Virus record (IMG/VR): IMGVR_UViG_2737471841_000006
Coordinates: 1-21,794 of that record
DNA: 21,794 nucleotides
Direction: 5' to 3' (one strand)
DNA from: a virus
Taxonomy: Duplodnaviria; Heunggongvirae; Uroviricota; Caudoviricetes
Under the pieces are notes generated by a model. That model was not told where the DNA came from and made no database searches. It saw nothing but the letters and a program-made list of their open reading frames with translations. The position numbers and the translations under genes are program-made. This document shows positions 6,745 through 9,543 of this stretch, piece by piece (the stretch's first letter is position 1; each line of letters begins with the position of its first letter).

Positions 6745-7234
6745 ATGTTGGATGTATTTACTCCATTGTTGAAACTTTTTGCTAAAGAGCCACATCGAAA
6801 GACTTATGTACACGATTATCATTTTTGGCCTCACTCTCTGGCTGATACCGAAAGAGTTTGCTGTCGTATTTAATGCTTATACTGAAATAACCTGGCTCTT
6901 TCAGATTATAGTTTTTGCCTTTTCTTTCGTGGTTGCCATTTCCTTCTCAAGATTGCGAGCACATATTCAAAAACATTATTCATTGCTACCAGAGCAACGA
7001 GTATTGCTTCGTTTATCTGAGAAAGAAATCGCTGTATTTAAAGATTTCCTTAAAACAGGAAATCTTATTATCACTTCTCCTTGCCGTAACCCGGTTATGA
7101 AAAAATTAGAACGGAAGGGCATCATTCAACATCAGAGTGATGGCGCAAACTGTTCTTATTATCTCGTCACCGAAAAATACTCCCACTTTATGAAGTTATT
7201 CTGGAACAGTAGGAGCAGACGTTTTAATCGTTAG
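6745..7234 (+). pseudogene. sieB: Superinfection exclusion protein B (sieB), reading frame broken by an apparent 1-nt insertion near 6792-6796
   Basis: MLDVFTPLLKLFAKEP (frame of ATG 6745) switches frame and continues as ..IERLMYTIIIFGLTLWLIPKEF..SRSRRFNR in the 6779..7234 ORF. 16 + 1 + 145 residues gives 162 aa, the intact SieB length. First in-frame ATG after the shift is at 6806. Confidence 0.6.
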
Positions 7235-7386
7235 CTTACTGTGTACTTCTCCAACCAGCGACGCGCGCCAACTTCGGTTTTAAACGTTTTGCTTTTGGTA
7301 TACGTCATGGCGGTGAACGTTCCATCCTGGTTGGGGAACACGCCACACACCAGGGATTCGTTGTTGCTAAGATCGATAGTATCCAT
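7231..7386 (-). CDS. ydaF: Rac prophage small protein YdaF-like, 51 aa
   Basis: ORF MDTIDLSNNESLVCGVFPNQDGTFTAMTYTKSKTFKTEVGARRWLEKYTVS from ATG 7386..7384, with AAGGGA upstream. TAA stop at 7233..7231 overlaps the sieB TAG (7232..7234) on the opposite strand. Confidence 0.65.
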   Translation of the reverse strand: MDTIDLSNNESLVCGVFPNQDGTFTAMTYTKSKTFKTEVGARRWLEKYTVS

Positions 7387-7517
7387 GTTGACCTCATTTT
7401 CCCTTAACGCTGGGGGAATTGGCTTCATAGTTGCTCCGTATCGTGGAGCCTACGACCTGCTTTTAACCACATCAGGTGAGGTGATATCCTTACAAATGGT
7501 AATTTGCTGTAAGGATA

Positions 7518-7796
7518 TTAATTATGGATATTAAATTTCGCTGTCCTCATTGCCGATCTCGCTACATTGAGATCGACGAGCACTCTGGCTCTGACAATGA
7601 TCGTTTTATCTGCGGTGATTGTTTTGCGGAAATCAAAGATTCTGATTTCAGTGAACACTTTAATAAAACAATCAATAAAATCATCCGGACAGTTAAAAAC
7701 CGCAGGAACAAGTAGTTTGTATAACTTCTCAATCTGATGTCTCAGGGGGCTGGTATCTATTTTTAACACCAGTCCCTGCTTTTCATCTGCGATCAT
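7518..7796 (-). CDS. ydaG: YdaG-like protein, 92 aa here; first gene of the putative leftward early operon
   Basis: ORF MIADEKQGLVLKIDTSPLRHQIEKLYKLLVPAVFNCPDDFIDCF.. with TAAGGGA 7 nt upstream of ATG 7796..7794. Lies directly downstream of the PL-like promoter and operator repeats. A plus-strand ORF fully overlaps it (see findings), so the true coding strand is uncertain. Confidence 0.45.
   Translation of the reverse strand: MIADEKQGLVLKIDTSPLRHQIEKLYKLLVPAVFNCPDDFIDCFIKVFTEIRIFDFRKTITADKTIIVRARVLVDLNVARSAMRTAKFNIHN
7524..7715 (+). CDS. Candidate 63-aa zinc-ribbon mini-protein antisense to the ydaG-like ORF
   Basis: ORF MDIKFRCPHCRSRYIEIDEHSGSDNDRFICGDCFAEIKDSDFSEHFNKTINKIIRTVKNRRNK. Has a CxxC-x17-CxxC arrangement, a basic C-terminal tail, and AAGGA Shine-Dalgarno 8 nt upstream of the ATG. 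Called on sequence features only. Confidence 0.35.
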   Translation: MDIKFRCPHCRSRYIEIDEHSGSDNDRFICGDCFAEIKDSDFSEHFNKTINKIIRTVKNRRNK

Positions 7797-7867
7797 CTTC
7801 GTATCCCCTTAACGCCGGGTGGCGGAACTGTTTGCTGAGAACACCGTGCGGTGTTTTGATGGGATGT

Positions 7868-7896
7868 AATTTAGTTTTCTCATTGTTTTTGGTCAA
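7868..7896 (-). promoter_or_regulatory. Putative sigma70 leftward early promoter (PL-like): -35 TTGACC, 17-nt spacer, -10 TAAATT on the minus strand
   Basis: Minus strand reads TTGACC(7896..7891)-17 nt-TAAATT(7873..7868), about 70 nt upstream of the ydaG-like ATG. Operator-like repeats lie in the spacer and over the -35. Confidence 0.35.
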
Positions 7897-7932
7897 GTGT
7901 TTTTGATGAGAAAACTCAATATTTGACTCAAG
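7871..7932. promoter_or_regulatory. Left operator-like cluster: repeated TGAGAAAACT / CTCAA(T/G) motifs (putative RacR binding sites)
   Basis: 7871-7885 ttagttttctcattg (reverse complement caatgagaaaactaa); 7906-7920 atgagaaaactcaat; 7927-7932 ctcaag. The 17-mer tgagaaaactcaatatt recurs exactly at 8443-8459 on the other side of racR. Confidence 0.4.
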
Positions 7933-7983
7933 ATAAAGCCAATACATTGAAATGTAAGGCTTTAAAAATTTGTGATGGGGTGA

Positions 7984-8391
7984 TTATTGATGTTTGTTAC
8001 GCTTGCGAGCTTCTAATAGCTCAGTAAATAGGCGATTAAAATTCTCAACTCGAGCGCTGAGTTCACTGATTTGTGCTTGTTGTTCGGATTTTGGAAGTGC
8101 GCGATACAGTCGCAACATCTCCAGTTCATCTTCCGATAAGTCTAAGGTGCTATTGAGTGAAACTGGGGCATCCGGAGTTTTATCCTCATCACCGAACAGT
8201 ATCCAGGTCGGTGAGCATTGTAATACCTCGGCGAGTCTATGCAAATTTTGCCCGCGCGGGGCTGTATGGTCACTTTCCCATAATGAAATTGATGAGCCAG
8301 AAACGCCAGCAGCTTTGCTTAAACCACTTTGACTTAAGCCTACCTGCTTGCGTCTTTCTCTAATTCGTTGACCTAAAGTTTTCTCGTTCAT
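7984..8391 (-). CDS. racR: Prophage repressor RacR-like (XRE-family helix-turn-helix), 135 aa from this start
   Basis: ORF MNEKTLGQRIRERRKQVGLSQSGLSKAAGVSGSSISLWESDHTAPRGQNLHRLAEVLQCSPTWILFGDED.. has a typical XRE HTH at the N-terminus. Divergent from the cro-like ydaS and flanked by operator-like repeats. Upstream in-frame ATG at 8442 (152 aa) is an alternative start; neither has a clear Shine-Dalgarno. Confidence 0.75.
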   Translation of the reverse strand: MNEKTLGQRIRERRKQVGLSQSGLSKAAGVSGSSISLWESDHTAPRGQNLHRLAEVLQCSPTWILFGDEDKTPDAPVSLNSTLDLSEDELEMLRLYRALPKSEQQAQISELSARVENFNRLFTELLEARKRNKHQ

Positions 8392-8412
8392 ATTTAGATA
8401 TCTTAATAACCC

Positions 8413-8458
8413 TTGACTTGAGATTCCTTGAGCGATTAACATTGAGAAAACTCAATAT
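8413..8458. promoter_or_regulatory. Right operator/promoter region: PR-like promoter (-35 TTGACT 8413-8418, -10 TAACAT 8437-8442) overlapped by palindrome ATTGAG-AAAA-CTCAAT (8441-8456)
   Basis: TTGAG half-sites at 8418, 8428 and 8442, with inverted CTCAAT at 8451-8456. GGAGG Shine-Dalgarno (8460-8464) and ydaS ATG (8469) follow immediately. Confidence 0.4.
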
Positions 8459-8468
8459 TGGAGGTGCA

Positions 8469-8597
8469 ATGTTTAAATCAGACGTAATTAATTATTACGG
8501 CACGAAAGCCAAAGTGGCGAAAGCTGCTGGCGTTGATCCATCTGCTGTTTCTCAATGGGGGGAAGCCGCAAACGATCGTCGGTTTCAAAATTGGTAA
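8469..8597 (+). pseudogene. ydaS: Cro-like HTH protein stub (YdaS-like), 42 aa; probably truncated at a deletion junction
   Basis: Hand translation gives MFKSDVINYYGTKAKVAKAAGVDPSAVSQWGEAANDRRFQNW then stop; not in the track (<60 aa). Good GGAGG Shine-Dalgarno. Only the HTH portion is present, a G6 run sits at 8557-8562, and a terminase frame takes over immediately. Confidence 0.5.
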
Positions 8598-9543
8598 TGC
8601 GCTGGTGGATGAACTGGACATTTTGCCGAAGGAAAAAGCCAGAACTGCGTGGCGCAAGATAATTGCGCGTATGCGTTATAAGGTTGATGGACTTCGCAAC
8701 GGTATTGACGTTACAACCACGCCAGAAGGATTCAAATTTGTCTACGAGCAGTTTGTTAAAGCCGTGCGTGAAAAAACAGAGTTGTCCTCACTGTATGGTC
8801 TGGTGCAGGCATCTACTTTCGATAATGAAAAGAACCTGCCAGCAGATTACATTCCTTCGCTTCTTGAATCATACCCTCCAGAGCTGATTAAAGCCTATCT
8901 TCGTGGACAGTTTACGAACCTGACAAGTGGTACTGTTTACCATCAGTTTGACCGGCAACTGAATAATTGCGAAGAAGTGGAGCAGCCTGGGGAGCCGATT
9001 TATATCGGGATGGATTTTAACGTTGGAAAGATGGCGGGGATCGTCCATGTGCTGCGTTTGGGTCTTCCATGTGCGGTAACTGAAATCATCAATGCCTACG
9101 ATACGCCGGATATGATCCGTATCATTAAAGAACGCTTCTGGCTGTATGACGGAAATGATTACCGGAAGGTGAGAGAAATTTATATTTATCCTGATGCCTC
9201 CGGGGATTCCCGAAAATCAAATAATGCAAGTGCGACGGATATTGCTCAGCTTAAACAGGCCGGTTTTAACGTTGTGGTGAACAGTTCGAACCCGCCAGTA
9301 AAAGATCGCGTTAACTCAATGAATGCAATGTTCTGCAATGCCAATGGCGAGCGTCGCTATAAAGTTAATGTGAAGCGTTGTCCGGTATATGCCGAATCTC
9401 TGGAGCAACAGGTCTGGGATGATAAGGGGGAGCCTGATAAAAAATCTGGCAACGATCACCCGAATGATGCAGGAGGTTATTTCATCGTTAAACAATTCCC
9501 TATTGTCAAACCGACCGGAAGAGTCACATCACTTCGGATTTAA
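8533..9543 (+). pseudogene. Terminase large subunit, N-terminally truncated fragment (Walker B-like segment plus complete nuclease domain; no Walker A)
   Basis: 336-aa frame with ALVDELD (Walker B-like) and nuclease-domain acidic motifs IYIGMDFNVG, IYPDASGD and GNDHPNDAGGY. No GxxxxGK(S/T) P-loop anywhere. Frame is open from 8488 with only a TTG at 8533. Sits directly after the cro-like stub, where replication and lysis genes would be expected. Confidence 0.6.

Follow-up and report, generated by a model that had tools for sequence, protein, structure and literature searches.

Which protein acts on the repeated motifs found at a leftward promoter just downstream of the repressor gene in this prophage, and which genes does that promoter drive? 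The window (the whole stretch of DNA analysed, 21,794 nt) had been read in an earlier note as carrying racR beside operators through which RacR directly silences kilR and recET. The evidence assembled here points to a different repressor: with a probability of roughly 0.8, positions 7868-7919 would be the left operator/promoter (OL/PL) of a lambdoid immunity module in which the 135-aa DicA / P22 C2-type protein of 7984-8391 acts as repressor. Feature coordinates are collected in Table 1.

By its surroundings the window is a Rac-family prophage. A region of 99.8% identity in E. coli E21845/O/A adjoins ttcA, the Rac attachment site, and carries intR, xisR, ralR, recT, recE, kilR, sieB and ydaF; tblastn of K-12 proteins against the window recovers YdaF (90%), KilR (95%), RacC (90%) and YdaE (66%). 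The attachment site in a nearly identical strain, this Rac-type gene complement and a repressor gene in the position held by racR in K-12 all fit the idea that the sites are RacR operators from which RacR silences kilR and recET, yet the protein encoded next to them is a DicA homologue. It is 55% identical to Qin DicA over 127 of its 135 residues (E = 2e-49), with the C-terminal half conserved too, and it matches Pfam HTH_3 (E = 2e-15); its closest solved relative is the P22 C2 N-terminal domain (PDB 1adr/2r1j; residues 1-72, E ~1e-16). BLASTP against K-12 RacR detects no similarity (E = 2.9), and tblastn with the K-12 proteins finds no homologue of RacR, YdaS or YdaG in the window. The RacR operator has been published as (T/A)TAGGC-n3-GCCTA(T/A) (PMC9638921), and its heptamer, ATTAGGC / GCCTAAT, is absent throughout the window. 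With neither the protein nor its operator heptamer present, both the racR label and the proposed silencing by RacR at this locus fall, and we regard RacR control of these sites as very improbable. The window is instead a mosaic in which a DicA-type immunity module adjoins a Rac-type left arm (ydaF, kilR, recET, int). The racR slot of mosaic Rac-like prophages can thus hold an unrelated repressor, which corrects annotation by gene position and means that predictions on RacR-controlled genes do not carry over.

The repeats themselves are defined by a 10-mer, TGAGAAAACT, with three exact copies in the 21.8-kb window, at 7873-7882 (-), 7907-7916 (+) and 8443-8452 (+), with a one-mismatch copy at 8377-8386. 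Exact copies of a longer 17-mer, TGAGAAAACTCAATATT, stand at 7907-7923 and 8443-8459, for which about 0.1 matches are expected by chance (no shuffle reached 3). The 17-mer had been proposed as the repeated motif, but across 12 related loci this window alone has two copies of it, indicating that its extra ATATT is incidental; what recurs is a 14-bp inverted repeat, TTGAG-AAAA-CTCAA (TTGAG-N4-CTCAA). Twelve sites in the window lie within two mismatches of TTGAGNNNNCTCAA, and five of the 12 fall within ~590 bp around the repressor gene, a clustering for which our own binomial estimate from those counts is ~1e-5. If up to three mismatches are allowed, enrichment disappears window-wide (69 found, 93 expected), which is what would be seen if the repeats were chance matches in AT-rich intergenic DNA, as is the chance-level 5-mer at 7927-7932. 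Against such an origin stand the exact 17-mer pair, the near-consensus cluster around the repressor gene, the conservation of the sites across genera, and an inverted match in which 17 of 19 positions of 7869-7887, over OL1, are complementary to the rightward operator stretch 8438-8456. A chance origin can be dismissed for OL1, OL2 and the rightward site, and as a general account of the repeats its probability is practically negligible. OL1, with two mismatches to TTGAGN4CTCAA, is oriented opposite to OL2 and to the rightward operator. Together these three copies flank the repressor gene, and the rest of the window has nothing comparable.

Table 1. Features of the putative immunity region, with the number of alignment columns that are invariant across 12 loci of the same operator type
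Feature	Coordinates	Strand	Description	Invariant columns
Predicted transcript leader	7797..7861	(-)	Inferred +1 at ~7861/7860; ends before first ATG at 7796	
-10 hexamer of leftward promoter	7868..7873	(-)	TAAATT; consensus scan	
OL1	7870..7883	(-)	Reads ATGAGAAAACTAAA on the minus strand; in promoter spacer, outer arm overlaps -10	12/14
Rest of leftward promoter spacer				0/7
-35 hexamer of leftward PL-like/dicBp-like promoter	7891..7896	(-)	TTGACC; consensus scan	
Stretch between -35 and OL2				0/9
OL2	7906..7919	(+)	Reads ATGAGAAAACTCAA; begins 10 bp upstream of -35; 1 mismatch to consensus	11/14
17 bp beyond OL2			Includes 7927-7932	0/17
Hairpin after repressor stop codon	7934..7964	(-)	-11.3 kcal/mol, z = -3.45; U-rich 3' side	
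Repressor gene, DicA / P22 C2 type	7984..8391	(-)	135 aa; BLASTP, Pfam and PDB matches	
Weak operator-like site	8393..8406	(+)	TTTAGATATCTTAA; 2 mismatches to consensus; where Qin Oa sits	
Rightward PR-like promoter	8413..8442	(+)	TTGACT (8413-8418), 18 bp, TAACAT (8437-8442); consensus scan	
Rightward operator, counterpart of Qin Oc	8442..8455	(+)	Perfect TTGAGAAAACTCAA, 0 mismatches; 16-bp palindrome spans 8441-8456	
Truncated cro-like gene	8469..8597	(+)	Pfam P22_Cro, E = 1e-11; first 32 of 75 residues native	

Both clear left sites were compared with those of relatives. The comparison set comprised 12 loci with this operator type (11 distinct left-region sequences), drawn from Qin-like prophages of O157:H7 and other E. 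coli, phage mEp460, two metagenome bins, Buttiauxella ferragutiae and B. gaviniae, the two Buttiauxella repressors being ~75% identical to that of the window. OL1 and OL2 are nearly invariant while the stretches around them retain no invariant column (Table 1), and in B. ferragutiae OL2 is a perfect palindrome. All 12 loci have exactly three sites with an AAAA centre, in identical orientations, at a spacing of 35-36 bp between the centres of OL1 and OL2 and of 533-536 bp from OL2 to the rightward site. Of the three motif copies described earlier on the left side, those now delimited as OL1 and OL2 hold up, and the third, CTCAAG at 7927-7932, does not: it is a bare, chance-level 5-6-mer with none of its six columns invariant in the 12 relatives, and was rejected. 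A further candidate at 7883-7896, over the -35, was likewise rejected as a three-mismatch match in a variable stretch. The placement claimed for the motifs is also half right, in that the promoter spacer does hold OL1, which reaches into the -10, whereas no copy covers the -35, OL2 standing 10 bp upstream of it.

The leftward promoter named in the earlier note is present, with a 17-bp spacer between its two hexamers. Promoter-like matches in the region are not above chance in a hexamer consensus scan (5 found, 3.4 expected), and what supports the promoter is its conservation and its dicBp homology, not the hexamer match by itself. Eight loci, which between them have three different operator specificities, preserve both the -35 hexamer and the 17-bp spacing, and the -10 of relatives reads TAAATT, TAATCT or TAACCT at the same position. 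In these 8 loci, with their three operator sequences, the entire layout is kept, running from the -35 through a 17-bp spacer with an operator and the -10 to 5-6 nt and a CATCAA. Where the repressor is another variant (Qin, Citrobacter sp. NCU1, C. braakii), this layout persists and the operator has changed on both sides of the gene together, as expected of a repressor and its own sites. Promoter and leader are, judged by alignment, homologous to Qin dicBp, a DicA-repressed promoter.

Downstream of the -10, a match of 93% to the Qin dicA-ydfA spacer, the leader of the dicB operon, covers 7804-7861 and is the sole K-12 match to the left intergenic region. This homology starts exactly at the conserved CATCAA, 5-6 nt after the -10, which indicates that the immunity-specific DNA ends at the predicted transcript start, placed at ~7861/7860. 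The leader (7797-7861, minus strand) is common to prophages of different immunity. An Rfam scan of 7200-8700 gave no match at E up to 1, and the leader folded alone does no better than its shuffles (z = -0.05). Across six leaders RNAalifold retained no more than a 4-bp hairpin, owing to a MAFFT misalignment of the first leader hairpin, which reads AACACCG-CA-CGGTGTT in E. coli and AATCAC(T)-loop-(A)GTGATT in Buttiauxella and Citrobacter, its position kept and its sequence changed; this covariation rests on a visual reading of the leader alignment and amounts to essentially one evolutionary event. A ribosome-binding module, CCCCTTAACGCC(G)GGG... (7797-7830), precedes the first leftward ATG, recurs as a degenerate repeat before ydaF (7386-7420) and is found before ydaG in K-12 Rac as well. 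The repetition suggests that the 7400-7800 block was inserted between leader and ydaF. On the other flank of the promoter, the hairpin after the repressor stop codon is kept among E. coli relatives and is probably a terminator insulating the leftward promoter from the repressor transcript.

On the far side of the repressor gene, the perfect rightward operator extends over the transcription start and the last part of the -10 of the rightward promoter. Neither the E. coli relatives nor B. ferragutiae show any change in it, and B. gaviniae has a single one (CTCAG). The rightward -35 has a core, TTGAC, that is invariant in 12 relatives, the sixth base of the hexamer being C in the two Buttiauxella loci, and the -10 region is variable. 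The weak site lies just upstream of the repressor start codon, 2 bp beyond the ATG at 8391-8389 on the repressor's own strand; it is invariant in 12 relatives, is kept also in C. braakii despite a different main operator there, and matches 13 of the 14 bases of the P22 operator consensus core, TTAAGATATCTTAA (PMC5175364). Its role may be weak autoregulation or preferential Cro binding.

The gene divergent from the repressor belongs to the P22_Cro family, which raises the alternative that the Cro-like protein is the main ligand of the sites, or that they serve the switch only via Cro and not via the repressor. In lambdoid switches Cro and repressor use common operators. Overlapping footprints of PaaR2 and YdaS have been described in CP-933P (PMC8630535). 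Here, however, the cro-like gene is cut after residue 32, so its product cannot be a working ligand in the window, and in Qin it is DicA that binds the equivalent site and represses dicBp, deletion of dicC being without effect (PMC3441716; PMC10448788). We consider a principal role for Cro quite unlikely. With the cro-like partner destroyed, the repressor would be the sole guard on the leftward promoter, and the switch would be held permanently in repression.

Within 8469-8600 the truncated gene joins, at a junction near 8564/8565, a terminase large-subunit gene without its ~100 N-terminal residues, indicating that everything from the early-right region through replication and lysis to the small terminase was lost in a single deletion. 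A 40-nt inverted repeat (8277-8316 and 8520-8559, 70% complementary) between the repressor and cro-like coding regions appears to reflect similar helix-turn-helix peptides encoded on opposite strands; it places an operator-like TTTCTCAATG within the cro-like gene.

Such damage invites the reading that the motifs are relics of a decayed prophage, persisting by descent at a promoter and operators that no longer function: the prophage is defective, its cro-like gene is fused to a shortened terminase gene, and replication and lysis regions are missing. The repressor ORF is nevertheless intact, the region is 99.8% identical to an undeleted prophage, and the sites have been kept in different genera even as the DNA beside them diverged. 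The downstream kilR homologue moreover encodes a protein that is toxic in K-12 (PMC12482147), and repression would be expected to stay under selection on that account. Decay as the explanation of the sites is in our judgement quite unlikely.

What the leftward promoter would drive differs in part from the list given earlier, which began with ydaG: tblastn finds no ydaG in the window, and the first place, ahead of ydaF, is taken either by an unrelated 92-aa ORF or by an antisense zinc-ribbon gene. The latter gene is a 63-aa ORF (7524-7715, +) with two CxxC pairs, weak zinc-ribbon and Lar-like Pfam matches and a good ribosome-binding site; downstream of it a strong hairpin (7745-7777; z = -3.2) leads into a U-run. 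The ORF, convergent with the leftward promoter, resembles a self-contained gene that was inserted here. RefSeq annotates in its place the antisense 92-aa ORF (7518-7796), which has no Pfam match. A terminator scan found no strong minus-strand terminator between 7860 and recT, and the leftward transcript would probably continue past ydaF into kilR, ydaE, racC, recE and recT. Its path crosses the convergent small gene with the 7745-7777 hairpin, and sieB, which lies on the strand opposite to the leftward genes. In K-12 Rac, under a different repressor, depletion of RacR raises ydaG, ydaF, kilR, ydaE and racC 40-70-fold (PMC11014345).

Taken together, the proposed OL/PL and its DicA-type repressor would work as follows. 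Repressor dimers are predicted to bind the two 14-bp inverted repeats through half-sites TT(G/T)AG about a 4-bp A-tract centre, in a P22 C2-like 5-N4-5 geometry, and a dimer on OL1, occupying the spacer and the -10, would be expected to obstruct RNA polymerase. OL2 stands at a constant distance of 35-36 bp from OL1; its contribution is probably to raise occupancy, whether through cooperative binding or through a DNA loop to the perfect rightward site 536 bp away. Since 35-36 bp is not a whole number of helical turns, simple side-by-side cooperativity between OL1 and OL2 is not obvious. In the Qin in vivo assay only Oc was bound and the weaker Om and Oa were not (PMC3441716), which suggests that weaker sites such as OL1, with its two mismatches, may bind poorly alone. 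On loss of the repressor, transcription would start near 7861 and proceed leftward via the conserved leader into ydaF. A bolder extension, which we think unlikely, is that the TTGAG-N4-CTCAA module represents a distinct immunity specificity of non-cleavable DicA-type repressors, and that the ~65-nt leader shared by heteroimmune Qin- and Rac-type operons could be a cis-acting RNA (antitermination or processing) helping transcripts to reach kilR/recET or dicB without an N gene.

In its 607-bp form the module is complete in 797 of 5426 complete E. coli genomes (~15%), O157:H7 strains included; in most of the 797 it is ~90% identical and stands before ydfA-dicB, and the variant at >=99% identity occurs in only 10 of the complete genomes. 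Phages mEp460 and HannyBb carry the module as well. As a DicA-type immunity module it is of a known kind, and its mechanism is the textbook arrangement, an ordinary module that holds nothing surprising for phage biologists; its operator sequence, TTGAG-N4-CTCAA, was not found in the literature searched. A concrete operator sequence and promoter are now given for it, and the genes it is predicted to control have toxic or recombination functions (kilR and recET in the window, dicB elsewhere).

Among known systems, lambda supplies the general plan, and the lambda OL/PL-like architecture recognised earlier is borne out. As with lambda CI, the repressor gene lies between divergent early promoters (7896-7868 and 8413-8442), in a geometry conserved among relatives, and the same operator overlaps both (7870-7883 and 7906-7919 at the leftward promoter, downstream of the repressor gene, mirrored by 8442-8455 at the rightward one). 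The left operon carries kil and recombination genes in both, and the divergent cro-like gene, of the P22_Cro family, is present if truncated. The repressor is of another family than CI, and the window has no N gene, recognisable nut site or RecA-cleavable domain. P22 and lambda operators form an adjacent triplet. In the window, the left side has instead two clear sites, 36 bp apart and flanking the -35, and the right side has one strong and one weak site.

P22 C2 (PDB 2R1J) offers a homologous N-terminal DNA-binding domain, a P22_Cro-family partner and 5-bp half-sites 4 bp apart, TTAAG-N4-CTTAA (PMC5175364); this repressor, DicA and P22 C2 have the 5-N4-5 geometry in common and differ in their half-sites. 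The residues aligned with Val33 and Gln37 of the P22 C2 recognition helix are Ser and Leu, and the helix reads SGSSISLWE here and SHVSVSQWE in Qin DicA, differences from both proteins that fit a changed half-site and specificity. P22 C2 has 216 residues (PMC10448788) and the window's repressor only 135, a length like that of DicA, which implies that it would be without the C-terminal self-cleavage region; its C-terminus is DicA-like, and no self-cleaving (RecA-dependent) domain was found in it. DicA has been reported to be without the Ala-Gly cleavage bond (PMC10448788).

With K-12 Rac the window shares the genomic position in the racR slot and the overall logic, and differs in having an unrelated repressor and operator sequence. 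Downstream of racR in K-12 MG1655, RacR-type palindromes TAGGCTATGCCTA and TAGGTAATGCCTA (TAGGC-n3-GCCTA) flank a TTGACA -35, one of them in the 17-bp spacer before a TATAGT, and a 35-nt stretch at this locus is 83% complementary to the racR-ydaS intergenic region (8631-8682 and 9283-9341 in the coordinates of the K-12 Rac sequence). The idea of a left operator for RacR may thus hold for K-12 itself, where RacR sites are described, in the literature searched, only in the racR-ydaS intergenic region.

CP-933P of E. coli O157:H7 offers a parallel in approach: PaaR2 acts in a cryptic lambdoid prophage with a left promoter, PL933P, whose OL sites resemble the right-hand ones and were predicted from sequence before repression was shown (PMC8630535). 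It was rejected as the same module, as its repressor and its operator, of GTTTAGTAA-type repeats, differ and a toxin-antitoxin pair follows its repressor gene. A study of DicC in O157:H7 (PMC6915034) was set aside too, its primers showing a different DicC (MLKIDAI...).

A close counterpart is the DicA/DicC immunity locus of the cryptic Qin prophage of E. coli K-12, whose repressor is also 135 aa long and 55% identical. The two have the same 5-N4-5 inverted repeat at the same place on the rightward promoter, 8441-8456 aligning with the 20-bp Oc, TTGTTAGTCATAACTAACAA; on the left each has a TTGACC -35 and a 17-bp spacer that contains an operator, the outer arm of which provides the TAA of the -10, and in each another operator stands 10 bp upstream of the -35. 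Also common to both are a leader of 93% identity and a DUF1391 gene downstream (ydfA in Qin, ydaF in the window). Qin DicA binds Oc in vivo, a single base change abolishing binding (PMC3441716), and deletion of dicA raises dicBp activity 22-fold (PMC10448788). An RNase III position in Qin is given as '813/814' in a numbering of unstated origin (PMC10448788). The systems differ in their half-sites, TTAGT (TTAGT-N4-ACTAA) in Qin and TTGAG in the window, which would imply a different immunity specificity, and in what follows on the left: dicF and dicB in Qin, and in the window a gene-sized insert between leader and ydaF and then the Rac genes ydaF, kilR, ydaE, racC, recE and recT. The window's cro-like partner, moreover, is truncated. 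Relatives of the module that are ~91% identical do stand before dicB.
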